This document shows positions 4,691 to 28,096 of a stretch of 64,000 bases of DNA, piece by piece (the stretch's first letter is position 1; each line of letters starts with the position of its first letter). The translations under genes and the position numbers were made by a program. The stretch comes from an uncultured Phycisphaerales bacterium (GTDB taxonomy: Bacteria > Planctomycetota > Phycisphaerae > Tepidisphaerales > Tepidisphaeraceae): NCBI GenBank assembly GCA_963844715.1, contig CAWJPJ010000006.1, positions 928,001-992,000 on the forward strand, written 5' to 3'. Below the pieces are notes generated by a model. The model was not told the DNA's origin. It did no database searches and saw nothing but the letters and a program-made list of their open reading frames with translations.

Positions 4691-5584
4691 GAGCCTCTAA
4701 CAAAAATGCGAATGAAGCCTGTTCCAACAGATCATTGCCTCACCCACGGTCATGAACGCGGCGTGGATGTCGGGCCGTTTTTCGTAACGGACTCGCAGTC
4801 GGCGATTCTGATGCAACCAACTCAGCGTACGCTCCACCGGCCAGCGGGTTTTGCCAAGACCACTTCCGTGCGGGCGGTTGCGTCGGGCCAGCAACGGGCG
4901 GCTGCCACGCTGACGCAACGCCTTTCGGTGCGGTTCGGAGTGATACGCCCGGTCTCCCTGCACCACCTCGAACCGCCAGCGCGGCCGGCCCGGTTTGCCC
5001 GAGACCTTTGGAATCGCATCGATCAGCGGCAGCAGTTGCGTGATGTCGTGGCGGTTGGCCGCCGTCAGGAGGGCAACCATCGGCGTGCCGTTGCCATCGG
5101 TCAATACATGGTGCTTGGAACCGTTTTTCCTGCGATCTACCGGGCTCGGACCCGTTTTTTTCCCCCGTGCACGGCCCGCACGGAAGCAGAATCCACCAAG
5201 GCCCGCGACCAGTCGATGGCATTCGACCGCCGCAATCGATTCAGCAATAGTCCGTGCAGCTTCGTCCAAACCCCACGATGGTTCCAATCGCGCAGTCGAC
5301 GCCAGCAACTCATGCCGCTGCCGCATCCCATCTCCTGGGGAAGGTATTCCCACGGAATGCCGGTTTTGAGCACGAACAGAATACCCGACAACGCCGCGCG
5401 ATCGTCCAGCGGCGGCCGGCCGCGCTTTCCTGGACCACTGCGGTGCTTGGGAAGCAGGGGTCGGATCAACTCCCAAAGCTCGTCGGTCACCAACGGCTTG
5501 GTCATAAAGCCCTCCATGGCTAAGACCAAGCCGTATTGTCCGATCAACCATAAACATGGGGAAGTGCATTTTTGTTAGAGGCTC
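4691..5584 (-). mobile_element. IS5-family (IS427-like group) insertion sequence
   Basis: Perfect 19-bp terminal inverted repeats GAGCCTCTAACAAAAATGC (4691-4709 and 5566-5584); TAA target duplication (4688-4690 and 5585-5587). Confidence 0.92.
4697..5505 (-). CDS. IS5 transposase, orfA/orfB joined by a probable programmed -1 frameshift
   Basis: orfA MTKPLVTDELWELIRPLLP...TGIPWEYLP; slippery GGGGGAAAAAAAC near 5154-5166; orfB GSKHHVLTDGNG...GDRAY...RWPVERTLSWL...RYEK; stop codon lies within the IR. Confidence 0.9.
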
Positions 5585-19679: not shown

Positions 19680-20144
19680 TGAGCACCGGGGAAAAACAAC
19701 GATCAATCTGGGAGGGAACGCCCGCTAGCCAGAGACGGGCGCCGCGGCGACGCTGTGGCTGTCGCCGCCGCGGACCCGTCCCACATCATATGGCAAAGCC
19801 AATGCCATGGAATTGGCGGCTCAAACCGCATTTATTAGGTCAGAAATGAGGTTTAGGTGCGCGGAGTTGCGCCGATTCATGCAGACTTGCCGGACTGGCA
19901 TTGCAAAATTGCAAGACCAACCAGTCACCGGCACCGGCATCCGATCCCGGGAGGAGGAGGGCTTTCGTGAGAAATGCGAGCAGAGAAGCGACCGCCAATG
20001 TGATCGCGAGTTTGTAATTCCTGGCTCAAATCATCCTCGCTCGTTTCTGGCCGCGCGGCGAATTTTATAGTCGGCGCGCCCAAAGTAACCAGAGTCACAG
20101 CGCGTCGATCCGAGGAGGTGAGCGAGACCGATCACACCAACCTA

Positions 20145-21032
20145 GGGCCTGTCTGATGAATCGCTTTTGGTTATAAATAGCGGTTTTCAGACGAGGTGTC
20201 ACGGATGCGACGTTATGAGCTCACGGATGAGCAGTACGAGTTGATCGGCGATCTGCTGCCCGGCAACGGCAAGCGCGGCGGGCAGTGGAACGACCACCGC
20301 ACCACGCTCAACGGCATGTTCTGGATTCTGCACTCGGGCGCTCAATGGCGCGAGATGCCCGAACGTTACGGCAGATGGCAAAGCGTCTACGACCGCTTCA
20401 ACCGCTGGAGAAAGGACGGAACGATTGATCGAATCCTCCAGCGGCTGCAGATGAGGTTGGACAAGCAAGGACGAATCGACTGGGACCTGTGGTGCATCGA
20501 CGGCACCAATGTGCGAGCCAGTCGATCCGCCGCCGGAGCCAGAAAATCAAAACCGCCCCGGAAGAACCGGCGGATCACGCGTTGGGCCGCAGCCGAGGCG
20601 GGTGGGGCAGCAAGCTCCACCTGGTTACTGACGGCCAGGGAGTTCCGCTCGCCGTCGAGGCCATGCGCCGGCCAATGCCACGAGAGCCGGTACGTGGAGC
20701 CGGTGATGAACGCGATGCGCATCGGTCGCCGCCGTCGTCGCCCCAGGAGGCTGGCGGGCGACAAGGGATACAGTTACGGAAATGTGCGGCGATGGCTGCG
20801 TCGCCACCGAATCCAAGCGGTGATCCCGGCGAAATCGAATCAGCCGCCGCAGGAGAACTTTGATCGCAAGGCGTATCGCCGACGGAACGTGGTGGAGCGT
20901 TGCGTGAATTGGATGAAGGAGAATCGCCGCCTGGGCACGCGTTACGAGAAACTGGCGGTGAACTTTCAGGCCATGGCCAAGCTCGCCATGATCCGTCGCT
21001 ATTTCAGGATTTTGGATTCATCAGACAGGCCC
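20145..21032 (+). mobile_element. IS5-family insertion sequence in a CTAG target
   Basis: Perfect IRs GGGCCTGTCTGATGAATC (20145-20162) and GATTCATCAGACAGGCCC (21015-21032); CTAG at both ends (20142-20145, 21032-21035); exact IR/TSD boundary is ambiguous. Confidence 0.92.
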
Positions 21033-21035
21033 TAG
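20205..21035 (+). CDS. IS5 transposase; central segment encoded in an alternative frame
   Basis: RRYELTDEQY, WREMPERYGRWQSVYDRF, IDGTNVRA; ALGRSRGGWGSKLHLVTDG in the other frame; GDKGY and YRRRNVVER. Confidence 0.88.
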   Translation: MRRYELTDEQYELIGDLLPGNGKRGGQWNDHRTTLNGMFWILHSGAQWREMPERYGRWQSVYDRFNRWRKDGTIDRILQRLQMRLDKQGRIDWDLWCIDGTNVRASRSAAGARKSKPPRKNRRITRWAAAEAGGAASSTWLLTAREFRSPSRPCAGQCHESRYVEPVMNAMRIGRRRRRPRRLAGDKGYSYGNVRRWLRRHRIQAVIPAKSNQPPQENFDRKAYRRRNVVERCVNWMKENRRLGTRYEKLAVNFQAMAKLAMIRRYFRILDSSDRP

Positions 21036-21100
21036 GGGAATACTCTGATTTTTCCGGCGAAATTAAGTGAACATATATTTCGTGACGAGTTAACCAATAC

Positions 21101-24625: not shown

Positions 24626-24698
24626 GGGCCTGTAGCTCAGCGGCCAGAGTGCTTGCTCGACACGCAAGAGGTCCGTGGTTCGATTCCACGCCGGCCCA
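24626..24698 (+). tRNA. tRNA-Val(GAC)
   Basis: Anticodon arm CTTGC-TC GAC AC-GCAAG; T-loop TTCGATT. Confidence 0.88.
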
Positions 24699-24721
24699 CT
24701 CTCGGTTCGCGCCGCATTCGG

Positions 24722-24959
24722 GCGCCTAGAGCGGCTTGCGGCTCCGCGTAGCGAGCCAGTTGGCCTCGGCTGCAACGGAGGCAAGGATGAACGACGAGGC
24801 GTATCAGAAAATCAGATACGTTGAGGAGCGAAGACGCGGCATCCGTTGCAGCCGTGGACAAATGGCCGCTAGGCGGAGCCGCAATCCGCTCTAAGCTCAA
24901 TCGGCGAGAGCGCCGCGCTTACATCGCGGAGGATGTTGGTTCGAGTCCAGCTTGGCGCA
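24722..24959 (+). tRNA. tRNA-Val(TAC) interrupted by a hairpin insert (24727-24893)
   Basis: 5' GCGCC at 24722 pairs with 3' GGCGC-A at 24954-24959; D arm, CCGCG-CT TAC AT-CGCGG and T arm follow the insert. Confidence 0.78.
24727..24893. mobile_element. MITE-like long hairpin inserted in tRNA-Val(TAC)
   Basis: Ends TAGAGCGG...CCGCTCTA; about 55-bp imperfect stem; TA at both ends. Confidence 0.7.
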
Positions 24960-25050
24960 TGGAGATGAAAAATGACGGGAATGCCCGGAAAATCAAGGTG
25001 TTTTCGCGTTGTTGACTGAACGGAAACGCCGCGAGAATCAAGGTTTTTTT

Positions 25051-25122
25051 GCGCTGTTAGCTCAGAGGCAGAGCACCCGGCCGATAACCGGGAGGCCGGA
25101 GAGTCGAGAACTCCACGGCGCA
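25051..25122 (+). tRNA. tRNA-Ile(GAT), atypical T arm
   Basis: CCCGG-CC GAT AA-CCGGG; acceptor GCGCTGT/ACGGCGC; T-loop GTCGAGA is non-canonical. Confidence 0.72.
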
Positions 25123-25187
25123 CTGAATTGGCGACGCGTCGTTAGCAGGCAAATGGATTCTCGCTGAACCCCGCGCGCTCTTCTCTT

Positions 25188-25228
25188 CCCCCCTCTCCCG
25201 GTACTCCGGGGGAGGGCTGGGGTGGGGG
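25188..25228. repeat. REP-like element
   Basis: CCCCTCTCCCGGTACTCCGGGGGAGGGCTGGGGTGGGGG, resembling the common CCCTCTCCC/GGGAGAGGG REP class. Confidence 0.65.
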
Positions 25229-25275
25229 CCGGCGCAATTCAGGCAAGATCCGCGGTAATCGGCAGTTCGCCTCGG

Positions 25276-25350
25276 GCACTGGTAGCTCAACTGGATCAGA
25301 GTTCCGGTCTACGAAACCGGAGGTTGAAGGTTCGACCCCTTCCCAGTGCG
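25276..25350 (+). tRNA. tRNA-Arg(ACG)
   Basis: CCGGT-CT ACG AA-ACCGG; acceptor GCACTGG/CCAGTGC. Confidence 0.9.
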
Positions 25351-25407
25351 TTATGAACGAAAAATGGTTGTATATATATCTATTGCAATACAACCAGAAG
25401 TGTCCGC

Positions 25408-25479
25408 GCACTCGTAGCTTAAGGGTTAAGCCGCCGGTTCTTACCCGGCCTGATGCAGGTTCGAATCCTGCCGGGTGCA
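25408..25479 (+). tRNA. tRNA-Lys(CTT)
   Basis: GCCGG-TT CTT AC-CCGGC; T-loop TTCGAAT. Confidence 0.85.
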
Positions 25480-25534
25480 TGAAAGGAGAATCGAAAAATG
25501 AGCCCGAGCAGAACCAAACGGTGCAGGTAAATCC

Positions 25535-25609
25535 GCACCGGTAGCTCAATGGAAACAGAGCAACCCTCTTCTAAAGGGTCGGCTGAGGGTTCGAGTCCCT
25601 CCCGGTGCA
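25535..25609 (+). tRNA. tRNA-Arg(TCT)
   Basis: ACCCT-CT TCT AA-AGGGT. Confidence 0.9.
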
Positions 25610-25623
25610 TGTAGATTCCGCGC

Positions 25624-25695
25624 GCACCGGTAGCTCAACGGCAGAGCCGCCGCCTTTTAAGCGGAGTGATGCGGGTTCGAGTCCTGCTCGGTGCA
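25624..25695 (+). tRNA. tRNA-Lys(TTT)
   Basis: CCGC-CT TTT AA-GCGG. Confidence 0.88.
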
Positions 25696-25707
25696 TGAAT
25701 ACACCAC

Positions 25708-25781
25708 GGTTCAGTAGCCCAATCGGCAGAGGCGCCTGACTCAGAATCAGGATAGTGCAGGTTCGAATCCTGCCTGAACTA
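25708..25781 (+). tRNA. tRNA-Leu(CAG), short variable loop
   Basis: CCTGA-CT CAG AA-TCAGG; 5-nt variable loop ATAGT; A73. Confidence 0.85.
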
Positions 25782-25792
25782 TTTCGGCGAAC

Positions 25793-25868
25793 GTTGCGGT
25801 AGCTCAATCGGATTCAGAGCGCGGCCCTCCGAAGGCCGAGGGTGAAGGTTCGATTCCTTCCCGCGACA
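25793..25868 (+). tRNA. tRNA-Arg(CCG)
   Basis: CGGCC-CT CCG AA-GGCCG. Confidence 0.9.
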
Positions 25869-25878
25869 TCGAAAATTC

Positions 25879-25950
25879 GGGCCCGTCGTCTAACGGAAAG
25901 ACTCCTGGCCTGCACCCAGGAAATGAGGGTTCAATTCCCTCCGGCGTCCA
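25879..25950 (+). tRNA. tRNA-Ala(TGC)
   Basis: CCTGG-CC TGC AC-CCAGG; G3-U70 retained; one extra base in the 3' acceptor strand. Confidence 0.82.
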
Positions 25951-26036
25951 TGCGAGCGGCTTCGTCCGCTCCAGAAAGAAGGTGATCGATCATGAGCGAA
26001 AACTCATCGGAAAGTTCATCTAGCGGCTCCACATCC

Positions 26037-26124
26037 GGAGGGTTGGCTGAACGGCTAAGGCACCCGTCTCGAAAACGGGCATTCCCGATGACTGGGATTG
26101 GGGGTTCGAATCCCTCACCCTCCG
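26037..26124 (+). tRNA. tRNA-Ser(CGA)
   Basis: CCCGT-CT CGA AA-ACGGG; long variable arm. Confidence 0.9.
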
Positions 26125-26149
26125 CTGAAGTAAACGAGAACGTGCGCAT

Positions 26150-26239
26150 GGAGGGTTGGCAGAGCGGACGATTGCGCCGCGGTGCTAACGCGGAAGGCGC
26201 CGACTAGGCGTCTCGAAGGTTCGAATCCTTCACCCTCCT
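26150..26239 (+). tRNA. tRNA-Ser(GCT)
   Basis: CCGCG-GT GCT AA-CGCGG; long variable arm. Confidence 0.88.
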
Positions 26240-26282
26240 TTGGAATGTGCGAGAGGGAACGGAGCTGGTCCGTTCCCGGAAT

Positions 26283-26294
26283 GTTCTTTGACAA
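26283..26294 (+). promoter_or_regulatory. boxA-like antitermination sequence inside the tRNA array
   Basis: GTTCTTTGACAA resembles rrn boxA (GCTCTTTAACAA); preceded by hairpin GGGAACGGA...TCCGTTCCC. Confidence 0.5.
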
Positions 26295-26310
26295 TCCGGT
26301 GGCGTAATTC

Positions 26311-26384
26311 GCCGTCATAGCTCAGTCGGGATGAGCGTCCGGTCGTCAACCGGAAGGTCATGGGTTCGATTCCCATTGGCGGCG
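26311..26384 (+). tRNA. tRNA-Asp(GTC)
   Basis: TCCGG-TC GTC AA-CCGGA; G73. Confidence 0.87.
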
Positions 26385-26412
26385 TTGGGCGCGAATTCCG
26401 CGCGCCTTCGAA

Positions 26413-26484
26413 GTGGATTTAGCTCAATCGGTAGAGCAGAGGTCTGAAAATCCTCCCGCCCTGGTTCAATTCCAGGAATCCACA
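26413..26484 (+). tRNA. tRNA-Phe(GAA)
   Basis: GAGGT-CT GAA AA-TCCTC; acceptor GTGGATT/AATCCAC. Confidence 0.87.
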
Positions 26485-26506
26485 TGTCGGCCAAAGGCCG
26501 CGAATC

Positions 26507-26578
26507 GCGTCGGTAGTTCAGCGGGTGGAACACCGCTATGCCAAGGCGGAGGCCCGGGTTCGATCCCCGGCCGGCGCA
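26507..26578 (+). tRNA. tRNA-Gly(GCC)
   Basis: CCGCT-AT GCC AA-GGCGG. Confidence 0.87.
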
Positions 26579-26583
26579 TTCTC

Positions 26584-26655
26584 GCAGTGGTAACTCAATC
26601 GGCAGAGTACCGGTCTTCCAAACCGGCAACGTGGGTTCGAATCCCGCTCACTGCA
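26584..26655 (+). tRNA. tRNA-Gly(TCC)
   Basis: CCGGT-CT TCC AA-ACCGG. Confidence 0.88.
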
Positions 26656-26691
26656 CTAAAGGGACTTTCGACGGTTGAGGATCTTTTTCAA

Positions 26692-26764
26692 GCCGTGGTA
26701 GCTCAACGGGTAGAGCAGTCGTCTCGTAAACGACAGATTGCCGGTTCGATCCCGGCCCGCGGCT
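26692..26764 (+). tRNA. tRNA-Thr(CGT)
   Basis: GTCGT-CT CGT AA-ACGAC. Confidence 0.9.
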
Positions 26765-26777
26765 TTTCAAAAAAATC

Positions 26778-26851
26778 GGGTGCGTAGCTCAGCGGCAAGA
26801 GCAGGGGCCTCATAAGCCTCAGGTCGTTGGTTCAAATCCAACCGTTACCCA
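26778..26851 (+). tRNA. tRNA with CAT anticodon (elongator Met or Ile2; not initiator-like)
   Basis: GGGGC-CT CAT AA-GCCTC; G1-C72 paired; one extra T in the 3' acceptor strand. Confidence 0.8.
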
Positions 26852-26852
26852 G

Positions 26853-27203
26853 TCAGGGATAGTTCAAACCGGTAGAACGCTCGGCTCTGAACCGGGATGT
26901 TGGAGGTTTCGGAGCAGCTTCATCTGTTTTGTAGCGTCTGCGTTGCGTCCAGATGGGCCGGGCGCTAGGCAGAGCGACGAGTTGGGTCAGGCACAGCGAC
27001 CCGGCGAGGAGCGATAACGACGCGAACGGCCCATCTGGACGCAACCCTCCGGGTCGCCGCCTTTTGCGGCCCATGCGTCGTTACTCCTCCTCGCCGTATC
27101 GTTTCACCTGATACGACTCGTCGTCGCGCCTAGCCTGTGCCGCAAAAGGCGGCGACGCAGACGCTACAAAACAGATGAAACTGCTCTGATCCTTCTCCCT
27201 GAA
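26853..27203 (+). tRNA. tRNA-Gln(CTG) interrupted in the T-loop by a 277-nt insert
   Basis: TCAGGGA...CTCGG-CT CTG AA-CCGGG...GGAGG TTTC [insert 26911-27187] GAT CCTTC TCCCTGA A. Confidence 0.82.
26911..27187. mobile_element. Branched MITE-like hairpin insert in tRNA-Gln(CTG)
   Basis: Ends GGAGCAG...CTGCTCT; perfect 25-bp outer stem (26919-26943 with 27155-27179); two internal stems of 19 and 18 bp. Confidence 0.72.
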
Positions 27204-27204
27204 T

Positions 27205-27277
27205 TGAGCCGTAGTTTAATCGGTAGCAATGCCGGTCTTTGAATCCGGAGATCGTGGTTCAAATCCACGCGGCTCAA
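27205..27277 (+). tRNA. tRNA-Gln(TTG)
   Basis: CCGGT-CT TTG AA-TCCGG; acceptor TGAGCCG/CGGCTCA. Confidence 0.85.
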
Positions 27278-27283
27278 CTTCTT

Positions 27284-27356
27284 ACCCATGTAGCTCAACC
27301 GGTAGAGCAGGCGGCTGTTAACCGCCGTGGTGGTGGTTCGAATCCATCCGTGGGTG
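27284..27356 (+). tRNA. tRNA-Asn(GTT)
   Basis: GGCGG-CT GTT AA-CCGCC; G73. Confidence 0.88.
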
Positions 27357-27448
27357 TGGGCGGCGCTTCGCGCCACCAGAGCGTAGAAAGTAGAGGCCGA
27401 GAATTTTCTACTTTCCACTTTCCACGAACCACTTTCTCGCGCAGCGCC

Positions 27449-27520
27449 GCTCCTGTCGTCCAACGGTCAGGATACCGGGCCTTCAACCGGAGAATGTGGG
27501 TTCAATTCCCACCGGGAGTG
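27449..27520 (+). tRNA. tRNA-Glu(TTC)
   Basis: CCGGG-CC TTC AA-CCGG (one C short, possibly a homopolymer error); acceptor GCTCCTG/CGGGAGT. Confidence 0.75.
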
Positions 27521-27536
27521 CATGGAGAAATGATTT

Positions 27537-27610
27537 CAGCGTGTGGCGTAGCTTGGTAACGCACGTGCCTCGGGCGCACGGGATCGAAGGTTCGAATCCT
27601 TCCACGCTGA
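27537..27610 (+). tRNA. tRNA-Pro(CGG)
   Basis: CGTGC-CT CGG GC-GCACG; C1-G72, A73. Confidence 0.9.
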
Positions 27611-27615
27611 CTTTC

Positions 27616-27701
27616 GCGTAGGTCGCATAATTGGCATTGCAGCGGGCCGTAACCCCGCCGACCCTTAGTGGTCCCTGGGGGTTCAAATCCCTCCCTACGC
27701 A
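27616..27701 (+). tRNA. tRNA-Tyr(GTA)
   Basis: GCGGG-CC GTA AC-CCCGC; long variable arm. Confidence 0.85.
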
Positions 27702-27827
27702 TTGCCGCAAAGCGGCAATAGAGCGGTGGCGCAGTCGAACAGCCAACGAATGACTCGAGGAAATCGTCCCCGTCAGACGATCCCACCGCGGTCTACTGCT
27801 CCCCTGCTCTACTGTTCAGAATTTTCC

Positions 27828-27900
27828 GCGCCGGAAGTTCCAACGGCGGAACGCCCGCCTCCAAATCGGGAAGCGGCAGGTTCGATCCCTGCTCGGCGCG
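27828..27900 (+). tRNA. tRNA-Trp(CCA)
   Basis: CCCGC-CT CCA AA-TCGGG; G73; A at position 8. Confidence 0.82.
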
Positions 27901-27911
27901 CTGGCAGTTTC

Positions 27912-27983
27912 GAGGATGTGGCCGATTGGACAGGCGCGGGTCTGCAAAGCCCGTCGATGCTGGTTCGAATCCAGTCATCCTCT
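27912..27983 (+). tRNA. tRNA-Cys(GCA)
   Basis: CGGGT-CT GCA AA-GCCCG; U73. Confidence 0.88.
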
Positions 27984-27989
27984 TTTGAT

Positions 27990-28064
27990 GGTGGCCGTAG
28001 CTCAAACGGTCAGAGCACCGGGCTGTGAACCCGGTCGGTGTGAGTTCGAGTCTCACCGGTCACC
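27990..28064 (+). tRNA. tRNA-His(GTG)
   Basis: G-1/C73; CCGGG-CT GTG AA-CCCGG. Confidence 0.9.
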
Positions 28065-28096
28065 CTGTATTGCTGTTGATGGCTGGAAATTTGAGA

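Follow-up and report, generated by a model that had tools for sequence, protein, structure and literature searches.

A dispersed foldback element, probably a MITE, interrupts a tRNA-Gln(CTG) gene in a long tRNA array of a Tepidisphaeraceae-like planctomycete

MITEs that duplicate a TA dinucleotide can be mobilised by transposases of the IS630 type, and RNase III is able to cleave MITE transcripts (PMC2229807, PMC10969869). As presented in the sections of that literature drawn on here, RUP of Streptococcus pneumoniae, which is linked to IS630, and the Correia/NEMIS elements of Neisseria are non-coding, dispersed and bounded by terminal inverted repeats with TA termini, and they give rise to stem-loop transcripts, the stems of the Neisseria elements being cut by RNase III (PMC2229807). 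The insert described in this study, which interrupts a tRNA-Gln(CTG) gene, resembles these elements in organisation, but its family is larger, at about 275 nt against about 100-155 nt (PMC2229807), possesses two internal hairpin arms that may fold as a three-way junction or as a rod, and swaps its outer arms around a conserved core. The copy in the tRNA gene departs further from them, as it lacks a clean TA duplication and carries outer arms, here called type 1, for which no autonomous partner was found.

In the case of the intervening sequences of 23S rRNA, the likeness concerns the kind of host gene: in the part of the source used here, these are 100-300 nt long, stand in place of a helix loop in a gene for a stable RNA and possess a long stem suited to RNase III (PMC8708148). 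Their excision has been shown and the fragmented rRNA works (PMC8708148), whereas the host of the present insert is a tRNA T-loop, which is needed for the architecture of the molecule. The insert, unlike these intervening sequences, is demonstrably a transposon copy. Bacterial group I introns and archaeal bulge-helix-bulge introns likewise interrupt tRNA genes. However, the insert matches no group I or group II intron in Rfam and lies in the T-loop, not in the anticodon loop, and no bulge-helix-bulge motif is present at the tRNA/insert junction, where a 2x1 internal loop followed by a continuous helix is predicted in place of two 3-nt bulges around a 4-bp helix.

Long tRNA arrays, defined as at least 20 tRNA genes at a density of at least 2 per kb (PMC4758250), are described as horizontally spread, as containing supernumerary tRNAs and pseudogenes, and as occurring in Planctomycetes (PMC8421152, PMC4758250). 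The array studied here is like the known ones: its tRNA genes number more than 20, at over 2 per kb, it is patchily distributed among relatives, it is redundant with housekeeping tRNAs, and some of its members are dead. The sections of those accounts drawn on here treat pseudogenes and insertions in general terms, and not MITEs inside single tRNA genes. Our literature search, supplements aside, returned no MITE inside a bacterial tRNA gene, no MITEs of Tepidisphaera and no description of the present family, which one MITE survey (PMC11602168) may already hold; in a 2024 MITE review (PMC10969869), the word 'tRNA' has 0 occurrences.

The locus lies in a window of 64,000 nt, the whole stretch of DNA analysed, to which all positions refer unless a contig is named; the genome assembly from which it comes (G000) measures 4.55 Mb in 8 contigs and is 85% complete. 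Here, 277 nt separate the two parts of the tRNA-Gln(CTG) gene within its T-loop (Table 1). The explanation that we prefer, with a probability of roughly 0.85, is the pseudogenisation of a redundant array tRNA by a MITE, that is, an ordinary insertion and not a new kind of tRNA intron.

Table 1. Features of the two interrupted tRNA genes, their inserts and the surrounding array (window positions)
Feature	Position	Strand	Evidence
Long tRNA gene array with both split genes	24626..28065	+	24 ARAGORN genes, 26 Rfam tRNA matches, 3.44 kb
One-arm MITE, 163 nt, GAGC...GCTC, TA on both sides, in tRNA-Val(TAC)	24729..24891	.	6 own-genome copies; ARAGORN after removal
tRNA-Gln(CTG) 5' part: acceptor 5' strand, D arm, anticodon arm (CTG), variable loop, T stem GGAGG, loop bases TTTC	26853..26910	+	Sequence; sub-threshold Rfam match; ARAGORN after insert removal; uninterrupted orthologues
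Foldback MITE, bounds of the sequence-only reading	26911..27187	.	6 full own-genome copies; 22/141 family genomes; 25 copies aligned
Left terminal inverted repeat, outer arm 'type 1'	26912..26943	.	Pairs with 27155-27186: perfect 25-bp run plus 6 bp, one mismatch
Internal hairpin arm 1: 19-bp perfect stem and conserved interior module	26942..27045	.	Stem analysis, alignment
Internal hairpin arm 2: 18-bp perfect stem; interior module resembling that of arm 1, opposite orientation	27053..27156	.	Stem analysis, alignment
Right terminal inverted repeat, outer arm	27155..27186	.	Complementary to 26912-26943
tRNA-Gln(CTG) 3' part: loop bases GAT, T stem CCTTC, acceptor TCCCTGA, discriminator A	27188..27203	+	Sequence; ARAGORN after insert removal

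By the counts in Table 1, the array is a long tRNA array under the published definition. Within it, the split gene is flanked by tRNA-Met (26778-26850) and tRNA-Gln(TTG) (27205-27278). A sequence-only reading of this DNA had held that both tRNA halves are intact, and we agree: the acceptor and T stem read as it described, and the D arm and anticodon loop are in place, with the acceptor strands TCAGGGA/TCCCTGA, an anticodon loop CTCTGAA containing the anticodon CTG, and a T stem GGAGG/CCTTC with one G-T pair. The interrupted gene is called neither by ARAGORN nor by Rfam at the gathering score, a sub-threshold Rfam tRNA match (24.6 bits) being confined to the 5' part (26853-26914); when the segment from GAGC to GCTC and 2 further nucleotides are deleted in silico, ARAGORN calls a tRNA-Gln(CTG). 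A scan of the array for promoters and terminators gave 0 promoter-like sites, and terminator-like sites at chance level.

Three other members of the array deserve mention. At 27449-27521, ARAGORN calls a tRNA but assigns it no anticodon ('tt'), and Rfam scores the stretch as a tRNA at 49.8 bits; as tRNA-Glu genes come after tRNA-Asn in related arrays, this may be a degenerate tRNA-Glu(TTC). A tRNA match of 48.5 bits in Rfam at 25051-25122, for which ARAGORN makes no call, may be another decayed member. The tRNA-Phe(GAA) of the array (26413-26484) is the sole tRNA-Phe(GAA) that ARAGORN finds in the 85%-complete genome; unless the assembly lacks the housekeeping gene, the array is not dispensable in its entirety.

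The insert has an elaborate potential for self-pairing. Its conserved ends, GAGC and GCTC, delimit positions 26912-27186, preceded by a G (an A in the other copies) and followed by a T. The perfect 25-bp run of the outer stem (26919-26943 with 27155-27179) continues outward as far as 26909/27189, through one C/A mismatch and one G-T pair, and reaches a length of about 31-34 bp, and the two internal arms are paired without exception at their bases (19/19 for 26942-26960 with 27027-27045, and 18/18 for 27053-27070 with 27139-27156). The stem analysis thus bears out the pairings proposed in the sequence-only reading, including the opposite orientation of the two arm interiors. The three-way junction that it proposed fares less simply: this is the consensus fold of the 25 aligned copies and the minimum-energy fold in 13 of them, but for the copy in the tRNA gene one long rod, in which the left half pairs with the right half, is predicted as the fold of minimum energy, at -181.7 kcal/mol, the predicted junction being about 10 kcal/mol less stable (-171.6 kcal/mol). 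Either predicted fold brings the two tRNA parts next to each other, as had been claimed. In a comparison with shuffled sequences, the RNA minimum free energy of -212.9 kcal/mol stood against -132.1 +/- 5.35 kcal/mol (z = -15.1), and 0 of 100 shuffles were as good. The absence of group I and group II hallmarks, also noted from the letters, agrees with our cmscan search of 26700-27400 (E up to 10), which returned the tRNAs and weak matches of the microRNA/sRNA hairpin type and no group I or II intron; no Rfam family fits the insert on either strand.

Copies of the element are dispersed. The own genome contains six full ones, the tRNA copy and five others, with 90-93% identity in the core, and additionally one truncated copy and one core-less hairpin. 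This solo hairpin (G000:C8:591834-591885), flanked by TA, consists of type 1 outer arms with a few bases between them, and is either a deletion derivative or a bare carrier of the core. The family core is present in 22 of 141 genomes of the host's family, probably Tepidisphaeraceae, a tally that counts the unpublished genome G004 too, and spans 10 of 76 genera; a search of 24 genomes from other families of the class did not find it. In an alignment of 25 full copies (272-295 nt), every copy starts with GAGC and ends with GCTC; TA flanks both sides in 9 of them and at least one side in 22, and two have TAA on both sides. The tRNA gene is the location of a single aligned copy (1/25), the other own-genome copies lying between long open frames. 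At 272-295 nt, the element is too short to encode a transposase, and none is present in it. A second subfamily of the same architecture, 67% identical (C7:72214-72488), occurs with varied arms in 18 of the 141 genomes.

With regard to a source of transposase, the own genome is crowded with insertion sequences, which we surveyed by a scan for GAGC...GCTC inverted repeats and by Pfam searches. An element of 1026 bp, present outside the window in 13 copies with a TA duplication and ends GAGCATTTCCC..., has DDE_3 and Tc3-type HTH domains in two frames and is therefore assigned to the IS630 family. Two further elements belong to the IS5 family: one of 894 bp (DDE_Tnp_1; 12 copies, one of them at 4691-5584, i.e., G000:C6:932691-933584), with ends GAGCCTCTAACAAAAATGCG and a 3-bp TAA/TTA duplication, and one of 893 bp, represented in the window at 20141-21036, with DUF4096 and DDE_Tnp_1_2 domains, ends GGCCTGTCTGATGAATC set in CTAG and about 28 own-genome copies with identical ends. 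The MITE arms of 'type 2' share 17-19 of 22 positions with the ends of the 1026-bp IS630-family element, and the arms of the second subfamily agree with the 893-bp IS5-family ends in 15 of their first 16 bases. The type 1 arms of the tRNA copy match the IS630-family ends at just 11-12 of 22 positions, and an autonomous element with such arms was found neither in the own genome nor in the 141 family genomes. The near-matches to type 1 ends are a solo end by a duplicated flank (C6:365879-365900), a degenerate end (C7:651551-651572) and the core-less hairpin on C8.

The site of insertion can be compared with uninterrupted relatives. Orthologous arrays with an uninterrupted tRNA-Gln(CTG) were recovered in 12 of 12 cases, comprising 3/3 syntenic genomes, where the intact gene sits between tRNA-Met and tRNA-Gln(TTG), and 9/9 metagenome contigs, found by a scan with a pattern taken from the 5' part of the gene. 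Among the 11 orthologous T-loops read (all except that of G015), nine are TTCGAAT, one TTCGAGT and one TTCAAGT; the metagenome contigs account for eight of the TTCGAAT loops and for the TTCGAGT loop (8/9 and 1/9), and the nearest contigs have the same GGAGG T stem. The sequence-only reading had expected such arrays to define the target site and its duplication: the arrays exist, but a clean duplication could not be defined. The flanks of the tRNA copy read TTTCG / element / TGAT, that is, CG against TG, the orthologous TTCGAAT contains no TA, and no target site duplication was found at this insertion. Duplications of 2, 3 and 4 bp (CG, TNA and TCGA) were considered against TTCGAAT and rejected, as none fits without extra changes; from a 2-bp CG duplication, the observed junction requires three extra changes within 9 nt. 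The rest of the split gene is undamaged, its two stem differences from the orthologues being A-to-G changes that keep G-U pairs, a state equally in keeping with continued selection on the gene or with a recent insertion.

The split gene is redundant in this genome, since a second, normal tRNA-Gln(CTG) is present at C6:540874-540946 together with two tRNA-Gln(TTG) genes. Of the two options left by the sequence-only reading, a composite MITE in a dispensable array tRNA or an intervening sequence handled at the RNA level, it is the former that the data favour, by virtue of identical-ended copies outside tRNA genes, the TA duplication that is usual in the family, the likeness of one arm subfamily to the ends of a resident IS630-family element and the second tRNA-Gln(CTG). 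Pseudogenisation by a MITE would have proceeded as follows. The 277-nt insert would be a non-autonomous DNA transposon, a foldback MITE, put into the T-loop by a DDE transposase acting in trans, most likely one of the IS630/Tc1-mariner type. We infer this type of mobiliser from sequence comparison, because of the TA duplication and because one arm subfamily resembles the ends of the resident IS630 family. The variable, self-complementary outer arms would serve as subfamily-specific transposase-binding ends and not as an RNA helix, and template switching in the palindrome probably maintains the complementarity of the hairpins at the DNA level. The insertion would have inactivated a supernumerary tRNA-Gln(CTG) of the long array, and we infer that the split gene is dead. 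On a transcript of the array, RNase III would find a substrate in the long perfect stem, and its cut would sever the transcript and yield no tRNA; such cleavage at the element is its likely fate by analogy, because the long stems of MITEs are known RNase III substrates and an RNase III gene is encoded in the genome.

The array holds a second split gene, a tRNA-Val(TAC) interrupted after the acceptor 5' strand (pieces 24722-24728 and 24894-24959) by a 163-nt element. The centre of this element matches the interiors of the arms of the larger family, with E values down to 2.5e-10, which identifies it as a one-arm relative. In this case the TA duplication is clean. The interrupted gene is missed by ARAGORN, and Rfam detects just its 3' part (24888-24959); once the element and one TA are removed, ARAGORN calls a tRNA-Val(TAC). 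A housekeeping tRNA-Val(TAC) is present elsewhere in the genome. Thus, of the 13 own-genome copies of the superfamily, 2 interrupt tRNA genes in a single 3.4-kb array, which far exceeds what a random genome-wide spread would give, and simple neutral insertion does not explain it; the excess could be explained by a target preference, by tolerance in a dispensable region or by MITEs arriving with the array. Together with the missing clean duplication, the missing type 1 partner and the unblemished remainder of the tRNA-Gln, these 2/13 hits are the points that weigh against pseudogenisation by a MITE. In the array of G005, another small palindromic repeat, with CAACTGACAACTGAC-type arms round a hairpin, is situated between tRNA-Met and tRNA-Gln(CTG), and tRNA arrays seem to collect small hairpin elements.

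A different emphasis, which we regard as unlikely yet the least unlikely of the alternatives, would place selection on the hairpin module itself: the conserved module would be a DNA or RNA device riding on varied transposon ends, with a function of its own, either in promoting synapsis and mobilisation or as a signal for processing or termination, and the hit in the tRNA would be a by-product. The module is indeed more conserved than the ends that carry it. The outer arms are mutually complementary in all 25 aligned copies, and the next ~17 nt of each arm differ wholesale among subfamilies while complementarity within each copy is kept; the 230-nt core is conserved save for the distal hairpin loops. 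The module is found in elements with two arms (about 275 nt) and with one (163-169 nt), and in combination with ends like those of the IS630 family and, in the second subfamily, of the IS5 family. The consensus structure computed with RNAalifold has 98 pairs, of which 44 show compensatory changes, pairs of the internal arms included. Conservation by itself is no proof of selection, however, as the copies are related by descent, and the strong variation of the distal loops and the lack of any matching Rfam family speak against a selected module. The internal arms favour G-T over A-C mismatches (35 vs 7 and 42 vs 10), an excess that is inflated by some fixed pairs and by the prediction of the structure from that strand.

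The origin of the complementarity is a further point against a selected module. A mini-hairpin at the centre of the element, CCC-NNN-GGG (27046-27052; columns 143-149 of alignment A1), has a 3-nt loop that is inverted between near-identical copies (TCC/GGA, TTC/GAA), which points to template switching within a DNA palindrome, and this process can maintain the complementarity of hairpins without selection. The mismatches of the outer stem are balanced (G-T 10 vs A-C 13), which together with the inverted central loops places the constraint on this stem at the level of DNA and not of RNA. Covariation of the outer arms was also considered as evidence for an RNA helix and rejected, the arms being like the transposase-binding ends of resident elements and G-T and A-C being balanced.

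We consider it very improbable that the insert is an intervening sequence in the functional sense, namely that RNase III cuts the stem and the tRNA parts, held together by the acceptor and T stems or re-ligated, remain functional. The arrangement has some appeal, since the insert stands where a terminal loop would be, with ends that pair over more than 30 bp abutting the T stem, the tRNA-Gln parts are otherwise intact, the genome encodes RNase III and a region like an RtcB ligase, and another tRNA gene of the array is interrupted by a hairpin element from this superfamily. The 23S rRNA intervening sequences, in the part of the source used here, are excised by RNase III with no religation and with function kept (PMC8708148). 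This analogy concerns the possible handling of the RNA and is not evidence for such handling here.

The T-loop itself argues the other way. Its positional consensus is T54-Psi55-C56-R57-A58. Exact excision of 26911-27187 leaves TTTCGAT, as the sequence-only reading had it, which differs from the TTCGAAT of the orthologues and is not the conserved loop, and after a cut within the stem both parts would still carry extra bases; we know of no bacterial precedent for a working tRNA with an open T-loop. RNase III leaves a 5' phosphate and a 3' OH, ends that are not substrates of RtcB, and the RtcB-family match in this genome (G000:C6:884360-885378) is scattered over three reading frames, with open frames of 315, 147 and 63 aa, a pattern that a frameshift in the gene or errors of sequencing may explain. 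The outer stem, in addition, is without a bias of G-U over A-C. Removal at the RNA level is disfavoured above all by the non-canonical loop after excision, by the absence of the insertion from all 12 orthologues and by the plain nature of the element as a dispersed transposon with copies at non-tRNA sites.

Equally doubtful is a combined model in which the module would be a portable cassette, common to one-arm and two-arm elements and fitted with ends from two or more unrelated transposase families, that favours or is tolerated in the tRNA genes of mobile arrays and is excised by RNase III, with tRNA-Gln and tRNA-Val surviving as two-piece molecules. If true, these would be the first bacterial split tRNAs, and the MITE core would be functional and not merely parasitic; the 2/13 tRNA hits and the odd junction are the only features that sustain a more interesting reading of this kind. 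Misplacement of a repeat inside the array during assembly is scarcely credible: the element is repetitive and the assembly incomplete, in 8 contigs, but assembled contigs from four public runs, which belong to one study that may include the source sample so that their support is not fully independent, match 26797-26947 and 26799-26955 across the left junction and 27127-27338 across the right one, with 0 differences, and none of them joins 26910 to 27188. For the junctions, which the sequence-only reading had wanted confirmed in raw reads, the evidence of these contigs is in favour of the insert.

All together, pseudogenisation by a MITE amounts to a routine outcome of transposition in a genome crowded with insertion sequences, in which a redundant tRNA of a dispensable array has been hit and probably killed. 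As the standard tools call neither of the interrupted genes, the case also calls for caution in the annotation of tRNA genes. For Tepidisphaeraceae-like planctomycetes, it brings to light an undescribed superfamily of foldback MITEs whose ends are interchangeable around a conserved hairpin module, and it indicates, from two cases in one array, that long tRNA arrays can decay through the insertion of MITEs within single tRNA genes.
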